From IMG/VR virus record IMGVR_UViG_3300030098_003955: 64,000 nucleotides of DNA. One strand, given 5' to 3'. Below, piece after piece: positions 6,001 to 58,667 of the stretch; positions within the stretch are counted from its first letter, which is position 1; every line of letters starts with the position of its first letter. The position numbers and the translations under genes are program-made. This DNA is from a virus. The notes under the pieces were generated by a model. It saw nothing but the letters and a program-made list of their open reading frames with translations, made no database searches and was not told where the DNA came from.

Positions 6001-9000
6001 CTCCGCCGGACTTCCAAGCATCATACCAAGAACAGTTGAGCTCTGTGGCTGGCTTACAAGTTCCCACATGACCGGGTTCGGGAGCGTTCCCATTAGCATC
6101 AAGGAAGTCTTGCCAGACACAGCATGTATAGTCAATCCCATCGCTGTCAGTACCGGAAAGGTTTTCACATTTGTTCTGATTGTTGTTTGCTGGGTCTGTA
6201 GGACTGGCCATTCCGCCACTCGTATTTGCAGAGACCCCGTTTGTGAACTGCCCACAGTTAAGACCACATATAGCAGTCTTTGCATTGCAGTCTGTTCTTG
6301 CTTGATTTCCAGTAGTTCCAATATCTATGAAAAATGCTTGGCATTTTGTTCGAGCATAGGTTTCAAAGGGTATCGAGTGGCGTACTACTTGGCCAGCACC
6401 AACGGCAGGTTGATCTTGTGTAGCTTCACAAATTTCCGTACCTACTGCGGCGACATCGCAATACCCACACTCATCAGGATCATCTATAGCGGCGAAAGAA
6501 AGCCCTTCTTCTTTATGACCATTAATAAATAGCTTATCGCTATAAGCAAGATCTAATTCGTTACATTTACTTCCATCGCCACCTTCTTCTATAGGGGGAC
6601 AATGCCCAGCCAGAGGAGTCTTAATCTCGGCAATAGTTGGTGTTGGTTCGCAGAACAAGTCTGGGCAATCACACTCTGATTCACATCTTTCTAAGGTTGT
6701 TTTCTTGTCTAGTAAGTCTTTCTCTGGCTTATAAAGATTTCCCAAGCCTATATCATTACAGTTGTCTGGGTCCTTTGGAAGACAAACACCACCCATCAAT
6801 CTGCATCTTGCAACTGGGCAAACTCCAGTACGGAGATATTCAGCGCCGCAGTTTTGCGTTGGGAAACAAGCAAGCTCTTGACCTATGGAAGGATCTGGAT
6901 GATATTCCATCGCCCATACGCTGTGTACGGTGCAATTTCTATCAGTCAACCCAATGTTGTTTTGAATTCTGTAATTTGAGATATCAACAGACAAAAGCTC
7001 ACAGGCGTCATGATCCATTACCGGACTGAAAGAGCTACCATTATTCCAATTGGTTGGGTCGTATTGCTTCTCATTGCCTACCATTTTGAAACATCTTCTA
7101 GTTTGAGGGTCGTACTCAACTAGAGGGTCTGTATTTCCAAAGCTGTCTTTGCATAAATATGCAACAAAGTCATGATCGAACCAGTAGGCAAGTCCTCTGT
7201 TTATTGACAAAGGAGAATAAGATGTCGCTCCGTGACATGGAGAAAACCCAAACGATCCGGGATCAGCATCCTCTGCGTCTACAACTTGTTGGATAGCCAG
7301 ATTTCGAGCATTGTCACTCGAAGCAGTTTTACCAATACATAAGTGATATTGGTCAAGGTCAAACTTTGCTTGTGCTAGTGTTTTGTATTTTAATGATTTG
7401 TGTTCAGTAGCCTTAAAGGGCTGTGGTTGCAGATTGAGGTTTCTTAGCCTAAAGTCTCCGACAGCATGATGGCTTCTGTTAAGAATGTTTGTATATGGAT
7501 AAATACCAACAACGTTACATTTGACTTGTTTTGCTAGGTTTGGAGAAAGGCAAGTGTAGTATGGGTCAGGATCAAAAGGATTGTTTTCGTCATGGAGTTT
7601 CCAACAGTTGCCATCTGCGTCAGGGCCAAGATCACAGTTTCCTAAGTTGGCGAGTCCTTCACACTTAGTATCAACCCAAATAGACTCAGCAGCTTCGCAC
7701 GCAGATCTAGTTGTAGACTTACCGTCTTGGCAAGAGCCATCACAATCAGCAGGAACGTAACTTGACTCAACCTCATCGCAATGGTCTGGACATGTTGGCT
7801 CGTGCCATAGGTAGACAGGACCAAGGCAATCTTCTTTTTCTATTGGTACAGTTACACCAGTCGCTACTTCTTCACAAAATCCATCTAAAGGAAGTTCGTG
7901 AAATCCACCCTTCGGCGATGTTGGGTTTTCTGGATCAGGGTCTCCCTTACATCCAGCACCTCCTGAAAGAACAAAGTCTAGACCCCAAGCTGATTCTGGA
8001 TAGTAGGCAACAGAACAAGCAGTACCGCCGGTTTCGCCACAAAAATCTGGGTTTGGATGAGAAAGCCCTAGATCAGACAAAAACGCCTCGCTAGGACATC
8101 CCGGATAATCCGCAAGCTTATTGTCACCTATTTGCCTAATTCCATCTGTTTCAATTCTGTATTCGTTGGTGCCAGTAACTAAAAAGGGAATTTGTCTTAC
8201 AAATCCGGGCCTTCCAAAATCTTTGTCAACATCCTCATTTAGGCAATAACAAAAGTCTTCGTTGTCTAAAGGCCTTCCCGGAAATGCAACTCCAAAGTGC
8301 CTATATCCACTATGGTCTTGGTAAGGAACCATATTTAGGTTATCAAAGCAACCGTAATAGTAATCACCGCCTTCTTCTATTCCAGTGCATTCTTTGTTCC
8401 CATCATTTACAAAGTATGTACCGTCTATATCAATAGCGTGACCTTCGGGATTATCTTGGTCAGGTGACTTTTTCCAACATGTCGCACTAGGAGTGCAGCC
8501 AGTAGGGCAAGAATCTTTGTTGTCATAAATGTCTGGAGGATTGCCGACGTTGGTGCAACCGCCGCCAACGTTAGCTTCTGAATCCACAAGAAGATCTCTA
8601 GGAATCCAACCTTTTCTAAATCCTATACTATCTACTTCACTAGCAAAGAAATTACTAGTACTTGCAAATTGATCTGTGGGAATTTGTAGTACTGTGGTTC
8701 TTCCTAGTAAGTGTTCTTTTACCTCGCAAGTACCAAAATTTGTCCACTTCTCAGTAGCCGACGCTGGCCCATTGCCACACTCAGATTGTTTTCTTGGATT
8801 TCCGTCATCATCTTGCAGGCACATGCCAGTGCCCTCTCCTGTAGATGGATCTAATTTCTCACAGCAAGATCCCTCAGTTTTCCAGTAGCAAGGATTTGTT
8901 GATATACCGTTATCATAAACAGTATGCTCACCACAAGTTTCAATTTCTTGAACACCACAATCTTTGATAACACTTTGCGAAACGCAGTTGCCGTAATAAT

Positions 9001-11269
9001 CACAGCCCCTAATCGCCAAGTTAAAAAAGCCAGTCTCCTCATCAGTAGCTTCAAGATGATAATAGTTTCTATCATAGATGTTTTTTATTCCCTGACAGGA
9101 ACCATCAGCTTGGAATACTACTTCTTTATGTGGACTATAGCAGACTTGATTGTATTTCAGTCCAGATACATCTCCTTCTGCATCCATGTGCGGTATATGA
9201 TGAGGGCTATCATCACTTAAGGCTACTCCACCACAGCAACTACTAGCGTCTGAAATTCCTATCTCCCAATCAGGAGTCCAGTAAACGCTACTACTTCCAA
9301 CAACCTCTCTATAAGCAAGACATTGGTATTTATCTATGAAGGCCTCGGCAGTATTATGAAATCCGCCTTCTCCTAAGCTATAACATTGAGGCCCAATACC
9401 TAATCCAGAAGAAGGATCTGTTTCACCCCTATCTTCGTAAGAGCACTGGTCACTAGACTTACAAAGATCGGCGCTAGTAAGGTCTCCACAAGCTACAGTG
9501 ACACAGCTAGTTCCTGACTCCAAGTCTTCCCAAGCCAGCCAAGTCATTAGGTCGTAGTTTACATTTTTTTCATACTTATCGTAGTGTACAGTCTCATAAG
9601 TAGTAGGACTTGATATCGTTATAGGTTTTTTGCAGCATCTAGACTTTGCAGTACACTCAGATTCTGTAGGCCTTACAGCTTGAACTATATAACCCTTGGT
9701 GACTCCATCCGTCGTCTCGAAGCCTTGAGGGCAATTATCTGGAGTGAATTCTGTAGCAGGGACATAGCCAACCTGAGAGTTGTAGTACATACACTTAGAT
9801 AGAAGAAGCTCTCCATCGGCAACAACACCTTCTTCTTCTCTCCATTGTGTACATATGCCATTTGGGTCAAATTCCTCACAAGCGTTTTGCCAACCCTTAA
9901 GAGACATCGTGACAGTCTCTTTTTTATCTTTTATATATACGCCACTAACGCCATCAAAATTACTCTTTTGGCCGTCTACACTACAATAGTTTGGAAATCT
10001 TCTAGGAGCGACTCCATCCTCAATACAACCTATCCTCAAATCTCTTTCATCTTTTAAGGAGTAAATGGTTCTTGTTGGAAGATGAACCGTAGCTATGTTA
10101 TCTACTACGTTGTCAGATTCAGGCGAGCTTAAAGAGTTGAATGAAAAAGAGGTTGCTGCCTTGTCAGTCTTATTATGAAATATTCCGGGAGGCAAATCTC
10201 CGATAATATCATATGAAGGGAGGGTATAGTTGAGCGTCGCTAGACCAGCGATTTGAGAAAATGTGTACTGAGCTTCTCTGTATCTTGAGGACTTACCTAC
10301 AGGGTCTTGATTGGTCCTATTAACGCTTCTAGCTCTATCGTCTACATCATTACTAACATCATCTCTAAAGACAAAAGATGGTCTGTGTATGCCACCACCA
10401 CCAGAGAAAGAACAGTCAGACCTTTGACCAGTCACATCAAAGTTTACGATTTCGCCGTTTACCAAGTTTGGCTCTATGTGTTGTACCGACGCTAGAGCTC
10501 CACCACTTATTCGGAGAGCGTCAATCGTAGTTACCGAGCACGGCTCACAGCCACTCCAGTCTTTTATTTTTGACGTTACAGCGAACTCGCCCGGAGATGT
10601 CTCCTCATAAGCGTCTGCGTCTGGATGGCATTGAGTTTTATTAGTCTCAAGGTCTCCTGTGCCAATGTCACCATCTACATAACCCCATTTGCACTGCATT
10701 CCTAAAGTCTTGAGTGCTCCGCACTGCTCTTCGCCCGCCTTTCCTCCGTCTTCATCATTGCCACTTTTGTCTGCAAGTTCGCAGGCTGGCCTGCACATCT
10801 TTGGAGCTTCTTTTCCACGATCTGGACCAGATCTAATTATTAAGTTTGGGACACTGCCCCATTTGCAAGAGACTCTATCATTACACTCATCTTCATCTGT
10901 TATGTTAGAGCATTCGACAGGCCATTCAAAGTATGGATAATCTCCAGCTGGTTCTACATAGAAAACTCTAGTGTCAGAATCAAAGCAACACTTTCTGCCC
11001 CTCCAAGCTCCATTTGAATATTTGACATCAAATCTTTCAGCTTGGCCTAGTTGTATTTTCTTCCTAGCCTCATCTCTAGAACCAGCTTTGACAATTGACA
11101 AAACCAATTCTTGAGGCAGTATGGGTTGATATCCAGTGAGATTGTTTGAGCACTGTTGTATACAACCACATCCTATATTGCAAGGATGATGAGTGTTATG
11201 ACTTCGACGGCCTGTTGACCTGTTGACAAGACCGGGCCAAGAGGTGTCAAAGTTGTCTCCTATTGTCAT
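2..11269 (-). CDS. Giant cysteine-rich putative tail-tip/adhesin protein, >=3756 aa, 3' end beyond the window
   Basis: ATG at 11269, 3 nt after the TAG of 11273..13324, translating MTIGDNFDTSWPGLVNRSTGRRSHNTHHPCNIGCGCIQQC. Hand-translated samples of this frame (2-360, ~1020-1110, ~1620-1680, ~5640-5720, ~6540-6640, ~8460-8580, ~9780-9900) have no stops. The track lists no minus-strand ORF in this frame, as expected if no stop occurs inside the window. Confidence 0.9.
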   Translation of the reverse strand, partial: MTIGDNFDTSWPGLVNRSTGRRSHNTHHPCNIGCGCIQQCSNNLTGYQPILPQELVLSIVKAGSRDEARKKIQLGQAERFDVKYSNGAWRGRKCCFDSDTRVFYVEPAGDYPYFEWPVECSNITDEDECNDRVSCKWGSVPNLIIRSGPDRGKEAPKMCRPACELADKSGNDEDGGKAGEEQCGALKTLGMQCKWGYVDGDIGTGDLETNKTQCHPDADAYEETSPGEFAVTSKIKDWSGCEPCSVTTIDALRISGGALASVQHIEPNLVNGEIVNFDVTGQRSDCSFSGGGGIHRPSFVFRDDVSNDVDDRARSVNRTNQDPVGKSSRYREAQYTFSQIAGLATLNYTLPSYDIIGDLPPGIFHNKTDKAATSFSFNSLSSPESDNVVDNIATVHLPTRTIYSLKDERDLRIGCIEDGVAPRRFPNYCSVDGQKSNFDGVSGVYIKDKKETVTMSLKGWQNACEEFDPNGICTQWREEEGVVADGELLLSKCMYYNSQVGYVPATEFTPDNCPQGFETTDGVTKGYIVQAVRPTESECTAKSRCCKKPITISSPTTYETVHYDKYEKNVNYDLMTWLAWEDLESGTSCVTVACGDLTSADLCKSSDQCSYEDRGETDPSSGLGIGPQCYSLGEGGFHNTAEAFIDKYQCLAYREVVGSSSVYWTPDWEIGISDASSCCGGVALSDDSPHHIPHMDAEGDVSGLKYNQVCYSPHKEVVFQADGSCQGIKNIYDRNYYHLEATDEETGFFNLAIRGCDYYGNCVSQSVIKDCGVQEIETCGEHTVYDNGISTNPCYWKTEGSCCEKLDPSTGEGTGMCLQDDDGNPRKQSECGNGPASATEKWTNFGTCEVKEHLLGRTTVLQIPTDQFASTSNFFASEVDSIGFRKGWIPRDLLVDSEANVGGGCTNVGNPPDIYDNKDSCPTGCTPSATCWKKSPDQDNPEGHAIDIDGTYFVNDGNKECTGIEEGGDYYYGCFDNLNMVPYQDHSGYRHFGVAFPGRPLDNEDFCYCLNEDVDKDFGRPGFVRQIPFLVTGTNEYRIETDGIRQIGDNKLADYPGCPSEAFLSDLGLSHPNPDFCGETGGTACSVAYYPESAWGLDFVLSGGAGCKGDPDPENPTSPKGGFHELPLDGFCEEVATGVTVPIEKEDCLGPVYLWHEPTCPDHCDEVESSYVPADCDGSCQDGKSTTRSACEAAESIWVDTKCEGLANLGNCDLGPDADGNCWKLHDENNPFDPDPYYTCLSPNLAKQVKCNVVGIYPYTNILNRSHHAVGDFRLRNLNLQPQPFKATEHKSLKYKTLAQAKFDLDQYHLCIGKTASSDNARNLAIQQVVDAEDADPGSFGFSPCHGATSYSPLSINRGLAYWFDHDFVAYLCKDSFGNTDPLVEYDPQTRRCFKMVGNEKQYDPTNWNNGSSFSPVMDHDACELLSVDISNYRIQNNIGLTDRNCTVHSVWAMEYHPDPSIGQELACFPTQNCGAEYLRTGVCPVARCRLMGGVCLPKDPDNCNDIGLGNLYKPEKDLLDKKTTLERCESECDCPDLFCEPTPTIAEIKTPLAGHCPPIEEGGDGSKCNELDLAYSDKLFINGHKEEGLSFAAIDDPDECGYCDVAAVGTEICEATQDQPAVGAGQVVRHSIPFETYARTKCQAFFIDIGTTGNQARTDCNAKTAICGLNCGQFTNGVSANTSGGMASPTDPANNNQNKCENLSGTDSDGIDYTCCVWQDFLDANGNAPEPGHVGTCKPATELNCSWYDAWKSGGATYIQGATVGYTCKSTSDDSRCQEAEFLSPESLSVLYREGTVSDADTFGSLLGRDVSFITKRKEDSLKYWGETGLWPEHKSSSYEADSCKGNQLFGYVEHASLTDPVIVKSSNHKLPSYPTKLQIGYINNDPVYGNFVVNAPIFKKDWIETEFHAALESDGTGKASRIIKKEAEKYDLKKHGPDDQIWPLVECPYDYLRKGAGGCKHDDIGSFSKFLEDNPFKPLDLEHLKQNCGVDDDGNPCMGLPAGLTTVSCSNPEKILGPDILGICYASADSGCGVEEAQGWCEDLSTGGGVNVSEEACWPPIYKWHPPQCEPSTAASLYKCVSKVPSAEYPNCDMARNQLDCGTLAASRPDIGGGLCEWIDRESACKPACSFRIDGEPMCSFATKENGDPAPAEFLVQKQVDKDHFSLFTCDGNTLESTERISQFLSNNFCPSTIFTFSGAGLKFTSCKAMNDTCCPRGCEDVTYSGPTSSDGTTLSSIKHHITGEVVAGQDDTSYNQNEFVLTNDPQVSMTCGASIIQGGQIEILGNVPWSGTWNHYADGLIRTEDVYGIGQNKNGYFKGWTGSSLINEPPADDYYVYVEHKETCPVCCDHFLPDTISATIGSVSTSILNDLYTDDGCGFNSCDGFNAVGYHTTNQLDEYGLKISEYRLCRESDIQQEVSDAFAAINLSASLSCNAQEYSTMQECTDNNKQGFCTNVSDGSRANGIEKVDCVAPNYKYVEIEGKTCKCESVPCSSDPSSTCHVAKKIYDDEISYLQQTYASLRCDAQKKFCARPSDQLRNIPHQHLSRSSHPCCLEDCIPGDTAVDDPCKKDYPTIEEWMGCHVATLYANGSHTAQNITCEIPQDVCFTDPGMDPTDVFENCGECVEGNNSPDPFACSGQSTRTDCNNAGCDWMSNAGGGDPVCDPCIGYPNNRPFACEPSCVETNVTPRFCRGQKDHRCGGTEFFPNPTVAINCEQDNAGNEIKNRCDINQNVVASGLHGGIDGCPNINEMGAADDGFHCYADIYAPTVGCLGFGQSKTIDLKYTDSAWRSDWALMGAKERFEFDGQGVRKGEYVGGQNCETFRVPNVEKQYCCWSDFYKTEFEPVLVGGVSPSNIKSNQFVVNGDVFQCPPRSKVRAGNHDVVRNADCGSCPSNDYGCGLYEKSNDLPRPTSNRDGHFFRLVAQCGPEVGLFETLNGQIPPDALGEDRTYSDPRLNLEMDVIHCGVACNTSAISAAPANSQCPDVVIKYEYEDVVDDKGNKIGDAISNVVETPFLCVTREEMIESGYSCTKQSCHSIPGQHCDVRPPCTGGCEFISGRIVDDYSGHLYEYSAAAAFPMQADTHQGQNEMWNFSSSPYYPKKPTLNRRVFWVERIENDEESYDLLHIDNRESCSYGEGTLVSVGKAEKFEAETGSYNGSSIDKKSKNPYISGNARLVDEIKDTRGASSFGIQLPAYTTIKVDDATGLMTNNNAYFRQFAIYEEFIPVDEYGDPQPAEAFFVKKLQLPAPYGNYPMPMPVQSSQQVGSQAFGGGKTPGKTHVGDSFGVGFGLGVNHSRVGLIPTAHNLNLEDSINGTYYTSVVPYDPTTGIGNKHISIERIENVYDTGDNGSCLFENHVELSDPDRALTRTECTTLGGYWVPKFLGTVVHVLGHHDLLDNELITISGNRCYDAACTVDGSVISDAKDTGCYEKDGFGTVFNITEADCKKDPDLVWYSGVLDIAGVTIKANTIDKTICEVTLGGSWGPDASIESAYDYEQGCPVFCRNQAQIEAFRTEKGCLDENFCQDCEVEKTEGEEDVTHCPLCAREDSNGELFGLDGEHIVRVLDTKAFVIGWEHQTDFEQDFTRLAKYSRNPLDNADRFGFNKKSAKYDPLDKKGLVEYPIQHSQNPTQLFDSDHNSMGFYSGMDGTKKVGEAFLSPFLPDVETDQLFQRELYDITKVSSAVEILSKADIGVVGYVTDKTKRFLRSTTTKIVQPNGTLDDIAIDSSSRAHSGLLGVNNLGLDEIAHCGAQ

Positions 11270-19688: not shown

Positions 19689-22147
19689 TACCAGCTAGCC
19701 TTTCCTTCATCAAGAGGTGTGGTAGTATCATAGTCAGTGATAGGCTGATTAACCTGTCTTCTGATTGGTGTGTCACTAGCAGTATGCATTTTGACTGGGT
19801 ACTGAAGCTGTGACATATTGCTATCATCGAGGTGTGTAACATCCATCTCGTATGTCCAGCTTATACTCCAAGACCACGATCCAGTCTTTGGATTCCAGCT
19901 TTCAGAAGGAGGATCGACATAATATTTACGCACGCCATTTTGGCCTTTAGGACTTATGGCATCAATGATTCCCTTTATTTTACCAATCACATCTCCATTG
20001 TTTGATGGCTTAGAAACCATCATTTGAGAAAATGTGTTAGTGCCTTGCGTAAGATTTGTGCTTATGTCATGTATTCTATTGGCCTGAGTTGGGCCATAGC
20101 CAGCACGAGTACTAGCGTTTGTGCTTTTAATCGAGTTTGCAATTGTATTCTCAGTCAATGCTTGATATCTCATGCCGACATCAACAGTGCAATCAATATT
20201 TAAAGTTCTTTTCCATTCGGTTTGAGTGCCGATGTTCTGTAGCACAGGACCAATTTTTCTACCAATGACTCCTTGAGATGCGTAAACATTTCCGGGATAG
20301 TTATCACTGATCGTTATATTTTCAGACCTAGTATTAGGTATTAAGTTCAAAGGTCTATTATTAAACGAATAGTTGTAAGTGATTGTTCCAGTAGTTGGAT
20401 TAGTAGCAACAGATTTTGAAATAGGCCTTGGGTTGAGTAGTATGTAACAACCTCCGCCATACTTGCCAATATTTCTAGCAGTCCTAACATTGTTAATATG
20501 ATTAACGACACCAGAGCAGGCAATCTGATTAGCCATGTGCTGTGCTGTCAGATAGAGCTCTTGCTGTATCCCATTAAAATGAGATAATGCCTCTTCGTAT
20601 TTTGAGTTTTTATAATTGTTGCCATCTATCCCTGCGTTTGTAAACTCGTTGTTCCTAAAATCAGCAGCAGACCCTTCTTGCAAATCTAGAGCGTCACTCA
20701 CAATCGCATCTTGAGTGTGGGAAGGATTTCCAAAGTTGGTTGCAGTTGCGTCACCATTATCTATAGCTGGATTTGCGTCAATGCCATCAATACCAGTCAT
20801 AACAGGCTTGACTAAGCCTTGGACAGATCCATTTATAGAAACAGACACGAGACCATTATCTTGTGATTCTTCAACACTTATATCAACAGTTTCGGTGACG
20901 TTTGATTGGTTTACACCGGAAGGAGCAAGTAAGTAACTCTCGGAAACCGAAAAGGCTCCTCCCATCTTGTCTACATTTTGACTTCTGCTATAGTTGAATA
21001 CAGCATATCCCGAGGGAATACTTACCCCTTGAAGATCAATCTTGTTGTTTAATGGATTAAGACCGTGACCAATAATATCAGTCACAAATCCACGAGCTTG
21101 TTCCCAAGCAGGGCTATCATATTTTTTAGCAAAGTTTTGAGCTTCTTTGCCTCTAAAATTGACGCCACTAGCGGCAAGCCAATCCTCTCCTGCGTACTCA
21201 TGGTCTGCGGAGCCAGTGCTGGGCTTTAAGAATCCCTCTGCTTGTGGCGTGTTGGTAAACTCAAACTTATTCTTACCAGTAGCACTTATTGATCTAGAAA
21301 CAGTGAAAGTTTTATATGTTCTAGAAATGGTTTCTAGAGACGCTGTGTTTAAGTTGTTTGTAAGACTGGTGTCGGAGTCGTCTTGCTCTCTCCCAGTGTT
21401 TGCCGCATTTCCAAAGTTGACTCTTTCTATTACTACCTCAGAACCTTCGGAAATATCGTATGACTCAGAAGCTCCGGTGATAAGCCACTTGTTTGTAAAG
21501 TCATCCTGATCTATCAGCGCTCCGCTAGTCGGGCCAATCAAAAAGTCTGCTTCTAAGTTGATAGTGTATTGAGCTACATATGTGTTGCCTTCTGGATGTG
21601 CTGGCAAATCAACACTAACAATTCTCGGATAGCATTTAAAACCAGAGTTTCCACCCATGCCATAGGCGTCAACGAGAAGCTCGCCACCTTCATTCTTTTT
21701 ACTGAAGAGGTTGGCTATAGCCATTTGCTTTACTTGTAATGACTTATAGTACTGGTTTATGTTAGTTCCGGGCCCATCTTCCTTGTCAAGCCCTATTGCA
21801 CCATTGTCCGCACTTGAGGCATCTGTTATTGTAGTAGTCCAATCTTGACTGTACTGGCCTCCATCATTCCCGTACTTAGTGGTGTTTGGCCTTTTCGAGT
21901 ACTTAGATGCTTCAAACTTAATGTGTTTGGTTTCATCAACATCATTGTCTCCAGTCAGGGCGAAAGACCCATTAGACAAGGGAGAGCCATGGTTGGCGAC
22001 CAATGTACCAGTTAGCGTAATGCTATATGTAATACCAATTATTTCGCCATTACCGGCTTTGATATAGTTTTTATTTAAATTTATAAAAGGACACGGCGTT
22101 ATAAAAAATGGATTAGCCTGACCGTGTACGTGGTATGAAATAGGCAT
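19688..22147 (-). CDS. Putative distal-tail/baseplate protein
   Basis: 819-aa beta-rich ORF (YSITLTGTL, YTINLEAD, TVSRSISATG, ITYNYSF) translationally coupled within the tail-tip operon. Confidence 0.55.
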   Translation of the reverse strand: MPISYHVHGQANPFFITPCPFINLNKNYIKAGNGEIIGITYSITLTGTLVANHGSPLSNGSFALTGDNDVDETKHIKFEASKYSKRPNTTKYGNDGGQYSQDWTTTITDASSADNGAIGLDKEDGPGTNINQYYKSLQVKQMAIANLFSKKNEGGELLVDAYGMGGNSGFKCYPRIVSVDLPAHPEGNTYVAQYTINLEADFLIGPTSGALIDQDDFTNKWLITGASESYDISEGSEVVIERVNFGNAANTGREQDDSDTSLTNNLNTASLETISRTYKTFTVSRSISATGKNKFEFTNTPQAEGFLKPSTGSADHEYAGEDWLAASGVNFRGKEAQNFAKKYDSPAWEQARGFVTDIIGHGLNPLNNKIDLQGVSIPSGYAVFNYSRSQNVDKMGGAFSVSESYLLAPSGVNQSNVTETVDISVEESQDNGLVSVSINGSVQGLVKPVMTGIDGIDANPAIDNGDATATNFGNPSHTQDAIVSDALDLQEGSAADFRNNEFTNAGIDGNNYKNSKYEEALSHFNGIQQELYLTAQHMANQIACSGVVNHINNVRTARNIGKYGGGCYILLNPRPISKSVATNPTTGTITYNYSFNNRPLNLIPNTRSENITISDNYPGNVYASQGVIGRKIGPVLQNIGTQTEWKRTLNIDCTVDVGMRYQALTENTIANSIKSTNASTRAGYGPTQANRIHDISTNLTQGTNTFSQMMVSKPSNNGDVIGKIKGIIDAISPKGQNGVRKYYVDPPSESWNPKTGSWSWSISWTYEMDVTHLDDSNMSQLQYPVKMHTASDTPIRRQVNQPITDYDTTTPLDEGKASW

Positions 22148-24636
22148 TATTGATAACCTCTGACATATAATGTTTCTGAGCCAGTGCCACTAGCAAAAGG
22201 CTTGACAAACAATGTTGTATTCGATGTTACTGCTGCGTGACCACTTGTGGCCAGATTCATGTTACTGTTTCTTCCCAATGTTCCAAATCCATGCATTGAA
22301 GATCCACCAAAGATGTTTATATGCTTTAAGAATAAGTTCATATTGTCATTTGCACTGTAAACACCAGAGTTCCTAACCAAAAGATTTAAGCTGTTATTAA
22401 CGGGCTCATTAGATCTAAGGTATAGAGGTATGTTGGAGACTGGCTGCAATCCTTTGATAAACAACAGTCTGTAGTCTTGGAACCCAGCACCACCAACATT
22501 TGGCAGTACCATGTTCATGGCTCCACTTATACTTCCAGAAGATCTATCAGCGTTACTCAAGTAAAGAGGAGCTGTGTTGAAGAGAGAAGGAACCAAGTCC
22601 TTTCCAGCTTGCAGCATAAGATTTACACTAGCAGCCCTCGAACTAAGGACCTCGCTTCTCTTTAAGAACAGCTGTAGTGTTCTTATCTCAACACCACCAA
22701 TAGTAAATAGGTTTGCGCTGTTGGATGTGTTTATAGTGGGGACGCCAGAAACATGACCTGTGCCACTATGCCCGAGAGAGGTAAGTGGAAATGGATTGTA
22801 TAATAACAAGTCCATGCTTTGGGCGGCGGTAGTAGCATTTACAAAAAGGTCTGTACTACCACTCGAAGAAACTGCGCTAGCCCCAAATGTTTTGAGGGTT
22901 AAAGAAGGCGAAAGCTGTCCTGTATTTTGGAAATCTCCACTAGCTGTGTTGAAAGAATAAAAACGATCATAGGAAGAAAATCTTACTTTGCTCGAATATA
23001 TTTTGAACTCGCCGTCGAAGTAAGAACCAGTATCTTCATAAAATACGCTAAGGTTAAGCTTGTGCTCTTCAAAGAACTCCTTGTAGCTTAAAGACTTTCC
23101 GCCTTGGAAATATAAATCATCTGCAAGGACCCCAGAAAAAGTAACTAATTCTGGAAATCCTGAAGGGATTAATGCTCCGCCTCTCCATCCCTTTACCTTT
23201 CTTATACCACTGACGGCAGCTGCGTTTTCTCTAAACCTAGTAGCAGAATGTGGAATGAATCGCATATTCCTCTGATAGCTATTATCGTTCTCATTTTCAA
23301 ACGTAGCTAAAAGTATAGCCCCACTAGGGTGATTTGTTCTATTCTCTACATGGATGTCTATGAATACATCTTTGACTTGATGTAGATTTGCATGTGCGCT
23401 TTTTATAGGGAAAGATATTTGAGAGGAAATGGCATGGGTTGAATGACCCCAAATATCGAAAGCTCCTCCAGCGGCACCTTCTGAATTTGTGCCATCAATC
23501 TCCAGCATGACATGAGTTTTATCTTTGGCGTCAAAAGCTCTACTAAATCCAGCTTGAGCTATTGCACCACTACCCGGAGTAGTGACCTCTTCATCTATAA
23601 ATGTAGGAAGAGCAAAGTGAGAATCATAAAAGCTTTTAACTTCATTAGAAGTCATAGATCCGCTAGCAAGACCAAGCTCATCAACAAATCCAACAAAGCT
23701 ATTTTCTACAATGTTAAACTCACTTCGTCCTAGAACGATGTTGGTAGTGTTGTTTCCAGCGGTTCTTGAAAATGATGGACTTCTACCTTCAAGCTGTCCA
23801 TTCACATATAGCTTAAGTCTACTATCACCAGATGCGTAAGTAGTAACCATATGGATTGGGTAGGCATACTGCTCAAACTTCTTAGTACTAGTGACTACAA
23901 TCGGAGTATTTGTTCCGGCGACGCTTGTGTCTGTTCTAGCAAAGAATCTACCCTCGTCATTACATCCCATAATCAAGATTGCAGGATCTTCTTTATGCTG
24001 ACTAAGGAAGGTGGTGCCTGTTATATTTCCACTAGGAGTGAACTTTACATATCCAGTGAACTCTCCGCCGCCGGTCGCTGGCAAAGCAGCGCCGCTACCA
24101 AGAACGACCCTAGAATCATCCCTCAGCAATAAGGACCTTTGCTTGACTGCATTATTTCCTATTTGCTCTACTGTAGCACCAGCTTTATACCATTCAGCGT
24201 TGCCTTGGACTGTGAAGCTGACAGTACTTCCAGATCCAGAGCTACTACAAGTACCATCGCCGAGATCGCCATCACTACTACCATCGTATGATGGAGGGCT
24301 TGCTGTACATTCAGCATGGTCAGCACACTCATCAGATTGACGACTCCATTCTCCCGGCGGTTCATTCCATTGATAACTAGCTTGATAGCTAGAGCAGTTG
24401 TCGCCCTGTGGAGCATTGCTATTAGGTGTGGATACTACAGGCTTTCCGCCACGAACACCACTACCTTCAAAGGGTAAATATAATAAGGAGAACTTACTGT
24501 TCTTAAAGTCCCTGTCGGCACTTCCTCTCCAATATCCGTAGTCCAAGTGCGTACCGCTCGGGAAAACGGCATTGTCTTGCTTATATGCGACCTTGCCGTT
24601 TATTACCAGCGAAGCATTATTATTAATCTCTGCCAC
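22147..24636 (-). CDS. Virion protein with a LamG/concanavalin A-like domain
   Basis: HMVTTY...LKLYVNGQLEG...IVLGRS...FVGFVDEL is the LamG-like jelly-roll signature. The C-terminus has short xNLFxx repeats. GTG start directly after the tape measure. Confidence 0.75.
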   Translation of the reverse strand: MAEINNNASLVINGKVAYKQDNAVFPSGTHLDYGYWRGSADRDFKNSKFSLLYLPFEGSGVRGGKPVVSTPNSNAPQGDNCSSYQASYQWNEPPGEWSRQSDECADHAECTASPPSYDGSSDGDLGDGTCSSSGSGSTVSFTVQGNAEWYKAGATVEQIGNNAVKQRSLLLRDDSRVVLGSGAALPATGGGEFTGYVKFTPSGNITGTTFLSQHKEDPAILIMGCNDEGRFFARTDTSVAGTNTPIVVTSTKKFEQYAYPIHMVTTYASGDSRLKLYVNGQLEGRSPSFSRTAGNNTTNIVLGRSEFNIVENSFVGFVDELGLASGSMTSNEVKSFYDSHFALPTFIDEEVTTPGSGAIAQAGFSRAFDAKDKTHVMLEIDGTNSEGAAGGAFDIWGHSTHAISSQISFPIKSAHANLHQVKDVFIDIHVENRTNHPSGAILLATFENENDNSYQRNMRFIPHSATRFRENAAAVSGIRKVKGWRGGALIPSGFPELVTFSGVLADDLYFQGGKSLSYKEFFEEHKLNLSVFYEDTGSYFDGEFKIYSSKVRFSSYDRFYSFNTASGDFQNTGQLSPSLTLKTFGASAVSSSGSTDLFVNATTAAQSMDLLLYNPFPLTSLGHSGTGHVSGVPTINTSNSANLFTIGGVEIRTLQLFLKRSEVLSSRAASVNLMLQAGKDLVPSLFNTAPLYLSNADRSSGSISGAMNMVLPNVGGAGFQDYRLLFIKGLQPVSNIPLYLRSNEPVNNSLNLLVRNSGVYSANDNMNLFLKHINIFGGSSMHGFGTLGRNSNMNLATSGHAAVTSNTTLFVKPFASGTGSETLYVRGYQ

Positions 24637-24650
24637 AAGAAGGTTCCCGA

Positions 24651-27600
24651 CTAGGTTTGAACGTTAGTTTCGATTGTTTTACTGCGTCTTTTGCCAATCA
24701 CCTCTGAATCTCTGCCGAGTTTAGGGAAGTGCTTCTTGAGCATTGAATTAATACCCTGTCTGACCTTACCGGCAGCTATTTCTCCAATCGCTCCCTCAGC
24801 TTCGCTCAGCCACTCAGCTCCATTGAGATGGACATCTACATTTATTGTACCACCGACATCCACGCTAAATCCTCCTCTAAGGACATCACTTAGTCTGTCA
24901 ATTTGTACAGAGAATCTTTGTATGCTTTTGTCAAACTGAGATGCGTCTATCATCGCTACTCCGCCGCCACTGACTGTGTCGCCGTCATGATAGTACCCAT
25001 TTCCTCCACGACGCTTGGTTCCAGCACGACCCATGTTGTTTATGCTTCTTAAAGTTGAAACACCAACAGCATCTACTGCGGCTTTTCTTACAACGAACTC
25101 TCCGGGAGTAAGCATAGCTGGAACAGTGTCAGTACCTCTACGGATGAATGCTCCAGTGCTTGCGTAGATCATACCTCCTGCATATCTACTTGTTACCGAT
25201 TCTGCTTGATTTCTTCTTTCCTCTGCCTTTTGGTTGGCTATGGTTTCAGCTTCTGTACGAGCTTCCGACAATTTCTGATTTGCTTCATTTATCTCCACTT
25301 GTAAAGTATTCAGCGACCCTGTAATAGCATCAAGCGCATTGTTTGCGTTGGTCACAGCTTCTCCAAAGCTTGACATAGGACCTAATGGTATTCCTGACAG
25401 GGCTGCGCTCAATTCTTCAAAACTCATACCAGACTCAAGCATCCTATCTAAGGTATTAGCGCTAATTCCAGCAGCTAAAGCCTCTTCGCGAATTGCTGCT
25501 GCATTTCCCTCTCTCGTAGCTGTACCAGCCATGATCGAAGCTTGCAAGACATCTCCAAGCATGTCGTCATCAAACTCTCCCATATTAGCGAACCTAGTCC
25601 TGAATTCTTTGATGATTTGAGCTCCTAGCTCAGTGTCGCCAAAGGTTCTCTTCATTTGTTCTTCAATTGCTTGTGCTACTTTTTGTCTTCCTGTTTCTGT
25701 ATCTACTTCTGCATCGCTCAAGCCAAAGAACTGACCTATTCTATCAATAATCTGAGTTGTTCCTCCCTCGTCTACTAAGTCTTCCATTTTTAATCCAAAC
25801 TCTTCACCAAAGAACTTGAATAAGTTTTGAGAGGCTCCAATTCCTGTAGCGTCAGAGTCTTCTAGATTTCTAATTCCTTTTATCATGTCCCTTTCTTCTG
25901 CCGTCATTCCAGAAGTACCAATTCTTTTTATTAAATTCCTTCCGCTCTCTGTGTTAATCTTGTCAAATTCAGCTGTAGTTAGTTTGAAGTCACTTCTAAT
26001 CTTATTGGCCGCATCCCGATTGGACTCCGCAGCTTTCAAATTTACCTCAGCGGTTCGTTGTTCTTGTTCTAGCCTTCCCTTCTGAGCCTCTAGCATAATC
26101 TTCTTGAGCTCTGCTAAAAACGTAGCATTTTGGTTAGCTATGACTTTATTCATATCATCAAGAGCTTGTCCTTGTAGCTCTGCTAATATCTTCGCAGCTT
26201 CTTCCCTATCTTTGAGGACATCTCTGATTTCCCTCATGATGTCAACTTCTGTCTTAGAAGCTTCAAACAAAGCCTTGGCTTGACTTTCAAGCATGGCAGG
26301 ATCAGCTTGTCCTGCATACCTTCTTTGGAACTCAGAGATCATGAGCTGTTCAGCTTCTTTGCCTTTGCCTTGAGCTCTCAGGAAGCCAATTACATCTTTT
26401 TGTCTTTCTCTAGAAAGTCCAGCCAGACTTCCTGTTTCTTGAGTTCTTCTTGTGGCAAGAGCAGTCCTGATAGCCCTATTTGAACTACTAGCATCACCAA
26501 ACATGATGTCTTCTGCCATCGAGCCTTTTGCTTCTCTTTCTTTTCTAGCTTTAGAAAGACGTTCTTGTAGCTGGGCCAGCAGTTCTGTGGAGCTCTTATA
26601 ATTTTCTAAAACCTGAGTAAGACTTTGGAACTCACTTCTTAAGGTCTCTGACTCATCTAGAAGTGCTCTTTGTTCTCTTATCTGGTCTACATTTAATCCG
26701 CCGCCTTGGTCTGATTGCAGTTGCGCAAGTTCATTAAGCCTGTTAGCTATTTCTCTCATCCTGTCTCTGTTTGCTCCAGCGGCAGCTCCAACAGAGGAAA
26801 GACCGGCGCCAGAACCAAGACGAGTATTTGATAGCAAAACATTCTGTCTTCTCTCAAAATCTGCTTGAGGTTGTCCAGCAGCAATCGAGCCTCCAGTCAT
26901 TTCTCTTATTATTTTTGCATTGTCTTGCTGTACGCTTACGACTGCTCCAAGCGCCTTAATATATTTTTGCTCAAGGTCAGTCCTTTTCTTAAGTGCCTGA
27001 GCTAACTGTGCGTTCTGTTTGCTGATTATCTCTCTCATTGTATTAAAGAGATCTACTGCTATAGTTCCGGGCAATCCTTCTATTAACTTTTTAGTAGCAC
27101 CTTCTATGTCAGCATCTACAAACTCTTTCAGCGTTTTCTTTGCTCCGTCTGCGTCATTAGCCATGTTGCCAAGCTTAGCACTAAACGCATCTAGCTGAGC
27201 CTGAACCTCTGGAAGGCTTATGTCAATTCCTGCTTTTTTAAGTCTCTCTTCTAACTTTTTCCGAACGACATCTTCAATTTCTTCACCTTCACCAAGCTGG
27301 GTAAGAGAAGCATCTGAAATTATATTTTGCAAGTCTGACTGAACAACATCAGCTATACCAGCAGTGACACCGGCGGCAGTTCCTATGCCGCCCATGACGG
27401 AGGCGCCTCCAATCGTAGAGGTGGCCTGAAAGCCTGCCATTATACCGGCGCTTTGTCCAATCATTCCACGCTTGGTAACATCTAATTTGACAAACTTACC
27501 TAAAGAAAGAGAAGCGTTATCGGCAGTTGCACTTAAGTTGTCCAGTGCGGTTTTCTGTATGTCTAGTGACTTGGAATAATTTTCTAAAGCTGAGAATAGA

Positions 27601-30600
27601 TAGTTCATACTAGACCTAAGAGTGTTCATCTTAGCTATAGTATCTGCCATGTCTTTCGTTCGTTGGTTTGCTAAGGCTTGGGCTTTTATCTGATCCATAT
27701 ACTGCTTTTTAAGCCTATGGAATGGTATGCCCTGCATCAATGCAAGTTGTCTAACTGCATTTTCGGCATTAGTCGCAAACAAAGCTTGAGCCTCTGCGGC
27801 AGTACGACCGCCACTTGCAACATCTTTTACTAATTTATCTAGACCAGCAACAGTCCCCTTGATGACTTCAGTTCTGGCTTTCAGTGCATTCTGTCTGTCC
27901 TCATCATTAGTTACCTGATATAGTCTTTCAGCTGTACCAGCCAAAGTTCGACCAGCTTGTACTACGTAAGAGCCTGCCTCTATTCCACCAGCTTCAAAAG
28001 CTTTGGTAGCTGAGTTAAACGCATTTATCATAGAGTCAAATTTGAATTTATTTTTAGCGGCATTAATTTTTTCTGCTACCGTGCTAGCAAAATTCGCAAG
28101 CTCTGCAAGAGCCATGATCCAACCAACTGGACCCATAAAGGCAAAGATAAGAACCTTGAGTCCCGTCTTGATCGCCTCGCCCACTTTAACCATAGTTTCG
28201 GCTTGCATTTGAATGCCTAAGAAGGTGCTTGTTGTCTGCCCTTCTTCTAAAGCTTTCTGTCCTTTTTTGGACATCTTACTACCAGCCGCATAAAGAGCAG
28301 CAAAAGCTATAACAGCAGCTCCAACCCCAGCAGCTAATCCGATTAATGGCCCGACTGCCCCAGCAGCAGCAGATGTGAATGCACTGCCAGCCTTTGTCAG
28401 CCCTGAGCCGAGCGGCCCTAAACCTTTACCAAAGTTCGACATCTTAGTGCCAACATTAGTAAGGCCTCTACCAATTGAGGTAAATTTTTTGCTCAAGGCT
28501 ACGGCTGCTGGATTAGCTGCCATAGCAGCGCTCGGTGCGGCTGCTCCCCCTGCCAGACCTGCCATTGACTGATGTTTCATTGCCGTCAAAAAGCCAGTTT
28601 TTCCACCGAACTTACCGCTAAGCGCACTCGCTATAGCCTCTTTCTGCTTCGCGACAATTAACAAGCCTGTGGCAATTCCGAGAGCTCCAAACAACTTAAT
28701 GTTTTCAGCAATCGACTCATTTTGGCCAGATATACTGTCAACTACATTAGAGGCACTATCTGCCAGAGCTTGGAGAACAGCAGGCAACATAGTGAAAATA
28801 AATAACGCATTGGTGAGCTTACCCATCATTCCACCAATGCCACCCGTACCACCACCAACAGGTCCAGCACTTCCAGTATTGAATCCAACAATACCACCTT
28901 TATTGAACCTAGCAGCTCCATGCCTGTTCATTCGTGAAAGGTTGCCATAGCCAATACTTTTAGCGGACTTTGCATTGACTACAAATTCGCCGGGAGTCAA
29001 AAGGGCAGGGACGCTATCAGAGCCATAGATACCACCACCTGTATTTTTTGTTTTCCTTTTTGATCTTAGTGCGGTCGTTCGACGTTGAATTGCGCTTCTA
29101 AAAAGACCTTGATTGACCCCTTTTTTAATAACATCTTGTGCAGCTTTGTTGGTGCCGGAAAGCTTGATGTCTGTATAGGGCTGTATGTCCTCCTTAGTGT
29201 ATTGGCCTAGTGAGGCATTAATAAGGTCAAAGTCTCTATTTCCCGGTTTGTCGGCTTTTGAAATAGCAATAACGTAGTCTTCAAATAACTGACCCATACC
29301 TTGGCTAAATTTTTTGCCCATGGTAAGGCCCATAGCATTGCCTTTGGCTCTTTTAGAACTCTTGCTTAATTTTTTTCTACTTTTTATGACAGTGCTTTCT
29401 ATTGGGTCTTCTGCCATTTTTTTGAAGCCTTCGCTTCTTGTGAATTGAGATACATCCACTGGGGCAGTAAACCTAGTCGCGGGAGCAAGTGTTTTAAGTC
29501 TTTTTATAGCAGTAGTTTGTCTGACTTTATCAATCGAAACACTTGACTTATTAAAGTCTCTAGGGTCGCCATCTCCTGTCTTACGAATAAGCATCCCAAG
29601 GCTGTCATTCAATTTTACTTTGTTACCAGCGCTGTACTTGTTCATAGCATGAAGACGCTCAGTGCCTATCGACTGAACGGCACTCTTTCTAAGAACAAAC
29701 TCTCCGGGAGTTAAGACTGCTGGAACGCTATCAGTGTTGCCACTTCCGGGAACGACGCCACCCCTATTAAACCCAAGCATCTTCCCGAAGCCTTTAGCCG
29801 CAAATCTACCAGCCATACCTACAGCAAGCATACCAATGACAGGTATCAAAGGACTAAGAGCATCAGCAACTTTGATAGCCGCATTGGCTATCTTAATCAT
29901 CATGTCTACAAAGACTTGGAATCCTTTAGTCGCAGTGATTGTTCTAAAGAGTTCCTTGACTGTTTCTGTTAGTCTTTGCATCCTAACTATGGTAGCCTTC
30001 TGGGCTGTCTGCGCGTCCCTATCTAAAGAACCAGACTCGGCCATGGCAACAGCTCTAGCTTTCTCCGCTTCAGAGAATTGCTGAATCATAGGGATAACTT
30101 TAGAAACCTGACGGAAACCACCAAGTTGTTCAATAATCATTGAATACCTGATGTCTCTAGGATCTAAAGAAGCCAAAGCAGCATTAAGCCTTCTAACAGC
30201 GTCATAAGAACCAACAAACTTTCCGTCAAGACCTTGAAGCTCAACCCCAAATTGCCTCAAGAATTTAATTGTTGTCGGTCTCTGTAAACGTGTAAAGATA
30301 GTCCTAAAACCAGTAGCAATGGTTTCAGCAGTTTCACGAGTGGTCGAACGCACGGATGTGAATAAAGCTATGAGCTCTTCTACACTACCGCCAGCAGCTC
30401 TAAATGCACCACCAGCACGCTTGATAGCAGTACCAATGTCAGATGCCTCAACAGCAAATTGACCAGCCACAGCATTAATCTGCCCAAGAACTCTATCAAG
30501 GCCAGATGCTTCAATTTTGAATTGCCTCATTACGGCAACCGCAGTTTCAGCTGTATTTTTAATATCATCAAAAGTAGGTGCTAGCGTTGTTTTGGCCAAA

Positions 30601-31115
30601 GCTTGCATCGCTATTCTGGTATCGTTTGCACTTAAACCAGTTTGCGCCAAAATTCTAGTGACATCTACTAATGAGGATGACGAAACCCCAAGACCTGTAC
30701 TTATATCACTAATGGATTTTTGTAGACCTTGCAGTTGTTTTACACTTTTGCCCGTAACCTGAGAGACTTTTATCATTTGTCTCTCAAATTGAAGTGCTGC
30801 ACTAGTGGCATCAGAGATACCTCTAGTCATAATTCTTATTGCGGCGTATGCTAATTGAGTTCTAAGAGCGTAGAAAACAGCACCCTTAAGCTGTTTGCCA
30901 AACTTGTTCATCGCTCCCGCTGCTTGATTTGCCTGCTTAGCTACGTTGGAAGTTTGGTTAGCGGTGTTCTTTAATTGCTGATTAGCCTTACCAGAATTGA
31001 CGTTTACATTTACATTTAACTGATTTTGCAATTGCTGTCTAATTTGCGTTGCAAATCTAGTTAATTGAGGTGCTTGGAAATTCACCTGTGCTGTCAATTG
31101 AAATGGTTGCGCCAT
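24651..31115 (-). CDS. Tail tape measure protein, 2154 aa, with internal repeated modules and an insert
   Basis: TP901-type tape-measure N-terminal region (FERQMIKVSQVTG...LAQTGL...), long Ala/Gly-rich and coiled-coil tracts, hydrophobic segments and three DxVPAxLTPGEFV modules; follows the tail tube and chaperone genes. Confidence 0.93.
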   Translation of the reverse strand: MAQPFQLTAQVNFQAPQLTRFATQIRQQLQNQLNVNVNVNSGKANQQLKNTANQTSNVAKQANQAAGAMNKFGKQLKGAVFYALRTQLAYAAIRIMTRGISDATSAALQFERQMIKVSQVTGKSVKQLQGLQKSISDISTGLGVSSSSLVDVTRILAQTGLSANDTRIAMQALAKTTLAPTFDDIKNTAETAVAVMRQFKIEASGLDRVLGQINAVAGQFAVEASDIGTAIKRAGGAFRAAGGSVEELIALFTSVRSTTRETAETIATGFRTIFTRLQRPTTIKFLRQFGVELQGLDGKFVGSYDAVRRLNAALASLDPRDIRYSMIIEQLGGFRQVSKVIPMIQQFSEAEKARAVAMAESGSLDRDAQTAQKATIVRMQRLTETVKELFRTITATKGFQVFVDMMIKIANAAIKVADALSPLIPVIGMLAVGMAGRFAAKGFGKMLGFNRGGVVPGSGNTDSVPAVLTPGEFVLRKSAVQSIGTERLHAMNKYSAGNKVKLNDSLGMLIRKTGDGDPRDFNKSSVSIDKVRQTTAIKRLKTLAPATRFTAPVDVSQFTRSEGFKKMAEDPIESTVIKSRKKLSKSSKRAKGNAMGLTMGKKFSQGMGQLFEDYVIAISKADKPGNRDFDLINASLGQYTKEDIQPYTDIKLSGTNKAAQDVIKKGVNQGLFRSAIQRRTTALRSKRKTKNTGGGIYGSDSVPALLTPGEFVVNAKSAKSIGYGNLSRMNRHGAARFNKGGIVGFNTGSAGPVGGGTGGIGGMMGKLTNALFIFTMLPAVLQALADSASNVVDSISGQNESIAENIKLFGALGIATGLLIVAKQKEAIASALSGKFGGKTGFLTAMKHQSMAGLAGGAAAPSAAMAANPAAVALSKKFTSIGRGLTNVGTKMSNFGKGLGPLGSGLTKAGSAFTSAAAGAVGPLIGLAAGVGAAVIAFAALYAAGSKMSKKGQKALEEGQTTSTFLGIQMQAETMVKVGEAIKTGLKVLIFAFMGPVGWIMALAELANFASTVAEKINAAKNKFKFDSMINAFNSATKAFEAGGIEAGSYVVQAGRTLAGTAERLYQVTNDEDRQNALKARTEVIKGTVAGLDKLVKDVASGGRTAAEAQALFATNAENAVRQLALMQGIPFHRLKKQYMDQIKAQALANQRTKDMADTIAKMNTLRSSMNYLFSALENYSKSLDIQKTALDNLSATADNASLSLGKFVKLDVTKRGMIGQSAGIMAGFQATSTIGGASVMGGIGTAAGVTAGIADVVQSDLQNIISDASLTQLGEGEEIEDVVRKKLEERLKKAGIDISLPEVQAQLDAFSAKLGNMANDADGAKKTLKEFVDADIEGATKKLIEGLPGTIAVDLFNTMREIISKQNAQLAQALKKRTDLEQKYIKALGAVVSVQQDNAKIIREMTGGSIAAGQPQADFERRQNVLLSNTRLGSGAGLSSVGAAAGANRDRMREIANRLNELAQLQSDQGGGLNVDQIREQRALLDESETLRSEFQSLTQVLENYKSSTELLAQLQERLSKARKEREAKGSMAEDIMFGDASSSNRAIRTALATRRTQETGSLAGLSRERQKDVIGFLRAQGKGKEAEQLMISEFQRRYAGQADPAMLESQAKALFEASKTEVDIMREIRDVLKDREEAAKILAELQGQALDDMNKVIANQNATFLAELKKIMLEAQKGRLEQEQRTAEVNLKAAESNRDAANKIRSDFKLTTAEFDKINTESGRNLIKRIGTSGMTAEERDMIKGIRNLEDSDATGIGASQNLFKFFGEEFGLKMEDLVDEGGTTQIIDRIGQFFGLSDAEVDTETGRQKVAQAIEEQMKRTFGDTELGAQIIKEFRTRFANMGEFDDDMLGDVLQASIMAGTATREGNAAAIREEALAAGISANTLDRMLESGMSFEELSAALSGIPLGPMSSFGEAVTNANNALDAITGSLNTLQVEINEANQKLSEARTEAETIANQKAEERRNQAESVTSRYAGGMIYASTGAFIRRGTDTVPAMLTPGEFVVRKAAVDAVGVSTLRSINNMGRAGTKRRGGNGYYHDGDTVSGGGVAMIDASQFDKSIQRFSVQIDRLSDVLRGGFSVDVGGTINVDVHLNGAEWLSEAEGAIGEIAAGKVRQGINSMLKKHFPKLGRDSEVIGKRRSKTIETNVQT

Positions 31116-58195: not shown

Positions 58196-58667
58196 GTAAT
58201 AGCATCTCCGAAACTTCGTCAAATACCCTTATCGCTCTTTCCTCTGCGGCAAGTCTATCCCCACAAAATATGGTAGGGATGTCGTATAGATCTTGGTATT
58301 CGTATAACTTCTTAAGCATGAACTTTCCATTCATGCGTGTGAACTGCCACTGTTTCTTAGGTATGCCAGAATTCTCAGGAAACTTCATTAAATCCTCAAT
58401 TGAGAACTCGCATATGATGTACTTAAATCTAAACTTAGATAATCTCTTCATCTCGGCCTCAAAAGCTTTTCTTTTTTTGCCAAGATTTAAGTTTAGTTCT
58501 CCGGTACTAGCTTTTCTTTCTATCGCTAGATATTTTTCTAAACCTCTAGCGGTGTAGTCACCTGTACATAAAGTTCTTGTTTTTAGTTCTTTGCATTTCT
58601 CGTAAGAAGCAAAGGTCCAGCCGTTCTTTTCTCTGGAGTCTTGTATGATGGTATAAGACCCGCTCAT
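58182..58667 (-). CDS. ERCC4/XPF-family nuclease
   Basis: IIQDSRE, GDY and IERKAS..EL match the ERCC4 GDxnERKx3(D/E) signature. Confidence 0.85.
   Translation of the reverse strand: MSGSYTIIQDSREKNGWTFASYEKCKELKTRTLCTGDYTARGLEKYLAIERKASTGELNLNLGKKRKAFEAEMKRLSKFRFKYIICEFSIEDLMKFPENSGIPKKQWQFTRMNGKFMLKKLYEYQDLYDIPTIFCGDRLAAEERAIRVFDEVSEMLLRGSN

Follow-up and report, generated by a model that had tools for sequence, protein, structure and literature searches.

The stretch of DNA considered here, a 64,000-nucleotide sequence of an uncultured marine phage (IMG/VR virus record IMGVR_UViG_3300030098_003955; called the window throughout, at its full length), encodes a tail tape measure protein (TMP) which, in our reading, carries an exchangeable nuclease cassette at amino acids (aa) 473-690, relying on PD-(D/E)xK-type chemistry and brought to the host with the virion, a proposal to which we would assign a probability of roughly 0.58. 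A sequence-only reading of the same DNA had already suggested that a restriction-endonuclease-like effector, bracketed by two modules, is injected as part of the TMP; the slot, the folded domain within it and the signature of that domain have held up, and its role as a nuclease has gained support from relatives in which a staphylococcal nuclease (SNase) homologue takes its place, whereas the PD-(D/E)xK fold itself was not recovered. The features on which the argument turns are these (positions are those of the window):

24651..31115, minus strand: tail tape measure protein gene (P0001; 2154 aa), an open reading frame matching PF10145 and PHROG tape-measure families
29047..29697, minus strand: exchangeable cassette, aa 473-690, without DNA similarity (blastn) to the otherwise 94-97% identical TARA scaffold L002
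29046..29627, minus strand: basic globular insert domain, aa 497-690, modelled by AlphaFold2 as N-terminal strands, two long helices and then a catalytic-like core
29616..29777, minus strand: module 1, aa 447-500, with the core DSVPAVLTPGEFV at aa 462-474 (29694-29732), delimited by motif and predicted structure
28902..29063, minus strand: module 2, aa 685-738, with the core DSVPALLTPGEFV at aa 700-712 (28980-29018), delimited by motif and predicted structure
25014..25175, minus strand: module 3, aa 1981-2034, with the core DTVPAMLTPGEFV at aa 1996-2008 (25092-25130), delimited by motif and predicted structure; near the C-terminus, at the same position as the module of lambda gpH

Three D[ST]VPAxLTPGEFV modules are thus present in P0001, the first two of which bracket the basic segment of ~195 aa. 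In a blastn comparison with L002, 5.4 kb of the window align at 97.2% identity and end at TMP aa 473 (window 29698), a breakpoint that falls inside the LTPGEFV core of module 1; the next 651 nucleotides have no similarity, and a second alignment, at 93.8% identity over 8.4 kb, begins at aa 690 (window 29046), just ahead of module 2. At the protein level, the TMP of a TARA Oceans scaffold (P0014) is 95-100% identical to that of the window along most of its length and only 12-37% identical in aa 481-690. The modules mark recombination breakpoints, and the inter-module slot, as had been surmised from the window alone, is a true cassette site, in which backbones of 95-100% identity hold different inserts.

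The same is seen farther afield. Relatives of TMP aa 60-500 number more than 2085 in metagenomes at E<1e-10, the best 120 of which were examined; counts of slot contents given here cover 127 related TMPs, and column conservation refers to a MAFFT alignment of 102 slots. P0092, which has an SNase in its slot, and P0108, whose slot carries the Glu-Asp-Lys signature of the window's own cassette (E-D-K type), have flanks that are 98-100% identical and slots that are 14-20% identical, and the two folds are exchanged likewise between P0049 and P0053 (slot identity over both pairs, 14-35%). On a tree of the N-terminal part of the protein the SNase label requires 8 changes, at least 7 of which are forced by well-supported branches; the tree (FastTree, 116 rows) is a quick one with some long branches, and the pairwise comparisons are independent of it.

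Approximately 106 of the 127 relatives carry the E-D-K signature (hidden Markov model (HMM), jackhmmer, pattern and reading combined), while 19 carry an SNase homologue in the same inter-module slot, which answers the earlier question of whether different domains occupy this place in related TMPs; a single fixed domain is ruled out by the SNase-type cassettes and the sharp swaps. The SNase type was recognized by reading slots missed by the core HMM, which share a motif of the form ...DGD(S/T)... R-L-x-G-Y-D-A-P-E ... F-G-R-P ... L-x-x-x-G-L. A profile of 17 such slots aligns nearly full-length with staphylococcal nuclease (4qb4, 1ihz, 4k14 and others; E 0.003-0.018), profile positions 5-114 covering SNase positions 9-106, and the printed alignment matches the invariant D-G-D with the DGDT segment of the enzyme, the invariant R with R-L, D-A-x-E with D-T-P-E and the last R with Y-G-R. 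These conserved positions would correspond to D21, R35, D40, E43 and R87 of the enzyme. One SNase-type member reaches the Pfam SNase family at E 0.052, and a further two (P0053 and P0070) were added by reading (17 + 2 = 19). The near-full-length alignment and the retained catalytic segments place this alternative cassette of the relatives, as opposed to the window's own, within the SNase family (thermonuclease, PF00565), whose fold is unrelated to that of the window's domain even though both occupy the same slot in nearly identical backbones.

Within the cassette of the E-D-K type, the motifs that had been singled out in the window are found where they were said to be (GQLFEDYV at aa 608, NRDFDL at aa 626 and YTDIKLS at aa 647), and their acidic and lysine residues turn out to be conserved across the homologues:

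29085..29342, minus strand: conserved core, aa 592-677, delimited by column conservation in 102 slots and by a core alignment
29280-29282, minus strand: key residue E612
29226-29228, minus strand: key residue D630
29169-29171, minus strand: key residue D649
29163-29165, minus strand: key residue K651
29121-29123, minus strand: key residue K665

Mean column identity in the slot alignment is 7%, and the only conserved internal columns are G608 (97/102), an aromatic F/W/Y at 611 (93/102), E612 (93/102), a hydrophobic residue at 629, D630 (95 D and 3 E, i.e., 98/102), 649 (55 D and 43 E; 98/102), 651 (85 K and 9 R; 94/102) and 665 (95 K and 3 R), so that the residue set expected of a PD-(D/E)xK enzyme makes up nearly all that is conserved in the slot. 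Spacing within the signature is 18-27 residues from E to D, 7-34 from D to (D/E)xK and ~14 from K to K. A loose E..D..(D/E)xK pattern occurs in 46 of the 102 slots, compared with 1.0 on average, and never more than 4, in 200 shuffles, and the stricter G..FE/D/(D/E)xK/K pattern occurs in P0001 just once, at aa 608-665. The cassette of P0014, for all its divergence, retains the signature with shorter spacing (FE, 21 residues, D, 9 residues, EVK), which seems typical of minimal resolvase-type PD-(D/E)xK members. An acidic triad with D/E interchange and a lysine constitutes the classical PD-(D/E)xK-type metal site, and we read E612, D630, D649-x-K651 and K665 as the candidate metal-binding and catalytic site of a nuclease.

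Several relatives depart from the simplest arrangement. Two E-D-(D/E)xK cores per protein are found in P0009, P0109, P0018 and P0011; in P0009 they lie at aa 221-313 and 580-667, between modules at aa 74, 352 and 683, i.e., slots can be arrayed. In a subgroup (P0019, P0023-25, P0035, P0051, P0055, P0099 and P0127) the (D/E)xK is replaced, the sequence reading W-E ... L-D-G ... G-D-A-A, and these domains, lacking the catalytic Lys, may be inactive or use another residue. P0101 and P0107 have neither cassette type; no second module was detected in them after module 1, and the region is charged and of low complexity.

The composition of the insert (aa 497-690) is indeed basic, as had been claimed, with 21% K+R, 10% D+E and a net charge of +22 over 194 aa, compared with ~12% K+R elsewhere in the protein, and, in keeping with the view that it differs from helical tape sequence, it is predicted by AlphaFold2 to fold confidently as an alpha/beta domain. 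The model from a 10-sequence alignment had a predicted local distance difference test score (pLDDT) of 85.7 and a predicted template modelling score (pTM) of 0.80, and a 301-aa model including both modules, made from an 89-sequence alignment, gave the same fold (pLDDT 84.7). In the predicted order, several N-terminal strands are followed by one short helix and two long helices, the second of which would carry G608, F611 and E612; a two-residue strand comes right after D630, YTDIK forms a strand, and K665 is placed on the next helix. The insert was found by phmmer in 8 proteins among 1.84 billion representatives, all of them TMP-like except for one 185-aa frameshifted fragment, and a profile search for proteins of 42-191 aa returned no stand-alone copies of the domain. 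The guanine-cytosine content of the cassette is 0.405, compared with 0.44 in the rest of the TMP gene.

The likeness to PD-(D/E)xK enzymes (Hjc, YraN/UPF0102, Mrr_cat) lies in a helix-borne G-x-x-F-E, a D preceded by a hydrophobic residue, a (D/E)-x-K strand followed by a helix, and the D/E interchange at the third site of the domain noted above. The core fold of the superfamily runs alpha-beta-beta-beta-alpha-beta, its D opening strand 2 and its (D/E)xK lying on strand 3. The differences, which weigh against our proposal as far as the fold is concerned, start from the fact that the domain has no significant sequence, profile or fold match. No nuclease family of Pfam matches the insert or any of the 102 slots, nothing relevant was found by Pfam and PHROGs on the insert, the 102 slots and the neighbouring genes, and sequence and profile searches of the PDB with the insert and the core gave only E>0.3. 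No nuclease was listed by Foldseek against the PDB and BFVD or, for both models, by VIA-align against 48,161 chains, its second look included, the matches of both programs covering only the helical hairpin of the domain; a search of the ESM Atlas by shape likewise gave no nuclease, and a language-model feature look-up of the core gave no usable match. Alignment of the core profile with E. coli YraN and Mrr by hhalign remained at noise level (probability <1%), and the best local alignments, which lie on the G..WE and D..QAK motifs of YraN/Mrr, are not counted as evidence. The restriction-endonuclease fold that the sequence-only reading had assigned to the insert was therefore not recovered by any of these routes. 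In addition, only ~10 residues separate the E-bearing helix from D630 in the window's domain, the strand that would intervene is not evident, the sheet seems, in the model, to be completed by the N-terminal strands, and there is a further invariant Lys 14 residues after the (D/E)xK.

What makes a nuclease the preferred reading nonetheless is the company the domain keeps. Because it is interchangeable with an SNase homologue whose catalytic residues are intact, the orphan domain would seem to be a nuclease as well, or at least to act on the same kind of substrate, and since related phages place an SNase-type nuclease in this slot, the most likely purpose of the slot is to have a nuclease arrive together with the virion. 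The tail lumen of other phages is occupied by the tape measure, which exits before the DNA does. As TMPs leave the tail in this manner, the cassette probably reaches the host at the very start of infection; ejection of the TMP ahead of the DNA and its C-terminal cleavage have been documented for lambda and T5 (PMC12617516, PMC10038345). The tail thus probably carries a ready-made nuclease into the host. The sequence of events we envisage begins with the TMP in the tail lumen, holding the folded candidate nuclease cassette between modules 1 and 2; upon ejection the cassette would enter the host envelope or cytoplasm just ahead of the genome, might be freed by cutting at the modules, and would there cut nucleic acid, be it of the host, of a competitor or related to defence.

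Other explanations have to be weighed against this nuclease cassette. The domain could be a non-catalytic DNA-binding or pilot element, which holds or protects the front end of the genome and guides it into the cell; it would be situated roughly one quarter of the protein's length from the N-terminus, the head-proximal end of the TMP in the textbook orientation. The net charge of +22 over 194 aa, the location of the domain at aa 497-690 of 2154, the failure to recover a nuclease fold and the relatives without the Lys of (D/E)xK would all suit such an element; it is, however, the acidic triad and Lys that are conserved and not the basic surface residues, and close relatives swap the domain for an SNase homologue that keeps its catalytic residues, and we consider this explanation unlikely, though deserving of some attention. 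Indeed, because an unrelated nuclease of the SNase type occupies the same slot, a purely structural as well as a DNA-holding role is argued against. That the domain is a mere structural spacer or assembly element, its conserved residues forming a salt-bridge network or a structural metal site, would agree with the lack of an identified catalytic fold and with the two long helices, which could continue the helical TMP bundle, but it does not explain why the domain is replaced by an unrelated fold whose catalytic residues are intact, nor why its surface diverges rapidly around a fixed E/D/(D/E)xK/K set, and seems very improbable to us.

If the domain is an enzyme, its substrate might still be another one, as in the case of a phosphodiesterase acting on signalling nucleotides or an envelope polymer, in parallel to the peptidoglycan hydrolases of other TMPs. 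Embedded muralytic domains are well known in TMPs (e.g., T5 pb2), and a fold that matches nothing leaves the chemistry open; yet Pfam revealed no lysozyme, peptidase or 2H-type similarity on the insert or the slots, the partner with which the slot is shared is a nuclease of nucleic acids, and the idea appears improbable. The sharp swaps between near-identical genomes with breakpoints at conserved flanks, and the interleaving of cassette types on the backbone tree, could also be those of a selfish nuclease that spreads between co-infecting phages by cutting rival alleles, with the modules as homology arms and little benefit for the virion. Such an element would hardly be expected to be in frame and present in 125 of the 127 relatives, to be represented by SNase-type enzymes, which are not sequence-specific, or to lack stand-alone copies, and we give it little credence.

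Cell-wall hydrolases embedded in tape measures are textbook knowledge, and mycobacteriophage TM4 and other TMPs carry peptidoglycan-hydrolase motifs. T5 pb2, with its metallopeptidase, likewise has an enzyme domain integrated in the ruler that is set free or uncovered when the protein is ejected. The enzymes of the T5 pb2/TM4 type, however, act on the cell wall and lie near the C-terminus, whereas the nuclease-like domain of the window is found in the N-terminal third, flanked by conserved modules between which it is swapped as a cassette. In the literature on tape measures with a nuclease, restriction-endonuclease-like or thermonuclease domain, no description of nuclease cassettes was found. 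If the proposal is true, a nuclease cassette swapped between otherwise identical phages would represent a new class of virion-delivered effector, acting ahead of any phage gene expression on host DNA/RNA, competitors or defences, and would give a function to the widespread GG...D(S/T)VPAxLTPGEFV module, which is shared with lambda gpH beside its cleavage region. The insert domain would then be a candidate new nuclease family, and as the TMP family is abundant in ocean metagenomes, early degradation of the host genome there would affect nutrient recycling. A wider generalization, which we put forward tentatively and with the odds somewhat against it, is that more than 2000 TMPs of uncultured, mostly marine long-tailed phages deliver interchangeable nucleases, that the E-D-(D/E)xK-K domain is a new nuclease family or fold confined to TMPs, and that the modules anchor recombination and are also the sites at which processing frees the enzyme in the host.

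As for the modules, the sequence-only reading had listed two, both at the right places, and had missed the third copy near the C-terminus. Its idea that a module duplication created the cassette slot stands as regards the slot, which is real, and fails as regards the duplication: the three copies within the TMP gene share only ~60-70% DNA identity and their sequence types are position-specific across the family, which rules out a recent duplication and makes them old, family-wide copies. A beta hairpin (VPAxL / EFV) and, after it, two short helices are predicted for each module. Intein-like flanks were considered as well and dropped, the flanks being copies of each other and the third copy, near the C-terminus (before the last ~150 aa), being without such a domain. 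In a tblastn search with aa 440-760 nothing but the modules was matched, the subjects being other TMPs, cyanomyovirus proteins and some lysins. Two module copies, at aa 966-1011 and 1413-1459, are also present in a tape measure protein of solved structure, the 1699-aa gp16 (PDB 8zdo_S / 8zdq), an entry that could reveal what the module looks like, provided that these residues are modelled.

Lambda gpH, close to its C-terminus, appears to hold a relative of the module: its aa 732-785 align with it (GG..G..PA..GEFV..K.A..IG..L) at a pairwise BLASTP E=0.001, and a module profile built without lambda scores gpH at 17 bits, a marginal value by database standards. Lambda gpH, which matures to gpH* and gpHC, differs from the TMP of the window in having one module copy and no cassette. 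Its module segment belongs to the N-terminal portion of gpHC, which is not resolved, and adjoins the Gly-rich stretch in which gpH is cleaved (PMC12617516); T5 pb2 is cut after R1127, which separates the peptidase domain from the rest (PMC10038345). Because the lambda segment adjoins the cut region and T5 pb2 is cut, cleavage adjoining the modules of the TMP studied here is, by analogy with these two proteins, at most a reasonable hypothesis.

The cassette also differs from its surroundings in the rate at which it changes. Between the window and the TMP (P0003) of a 100,148-bp virus record (G001), the insert shows 21.5 nonsynonymous and 2.5 synonymous differences (ratio of nonsynonymous to synonymous rates, dN/dS, of 2.4), compared with 2 nonsynonymous and 6 synonymous differences in aa 1-461 (dN/dS 0.10), where dS is similar to that of the insert; the counts are small and show a strong contrast between insert and flanks, without proving positive selection. 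Often replaced, and diverging quickly while its set of active-site residues stays fixed, the insert has features that would fit a conflict with the host, and a host defence that engages tape measure proteins during injection, SNIPE, has been described (bioRxiv 10.1101/2025.11.03.685801). A second variable patch is located at window positions 28236-28595 (aa 841-960), in a Gly/Ala-rich hydrophobic region after module 2, where identity to the otherwise near-identical P0014 and P0003 is 50-72%.

The identity of P0001 as a TMP of the TP901/PhageMin_Tail type follows from its PF10145 core (93 bits, the cut-off being 33.2), its matches to several PHROG tape-measure families, its great length and its place among tail genes:

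30156..30719, minus strand: PhageMin_Tail (PF10145) core, aa 133-320, Pfam match at E=2.9e-26

The TMP gene had no megablast match among 50,697 phage records, and the closest match among cultured phages, none of them close, is the SPbeta tape measure at 26% identity. All genes of the window are on the minus strand and form one long run of phage structural genes, in which the terminase large subunit is found at 56225-58222. Directly downstream of the TMP gene (22147-24636, minus strand) lies the gene of an 829-aa protein with a Laminin_G_3/ConA-like (LamG) domain (E=1.8e-10), and this order of the two genes is kept on L002. Farther on, downstream of the tail-tip genes, window positions 2-11269 (minus strand) are taken up by a single open frame of at least 3756 aa that continues beyond the window end. 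Of the window's sampled 31-mers, 46% are also present in G001, whose completeness CheckV puts at 50%, so that the genome may be ~200 kb; other members of the TMP family sit on contigs of 157-183 kb.
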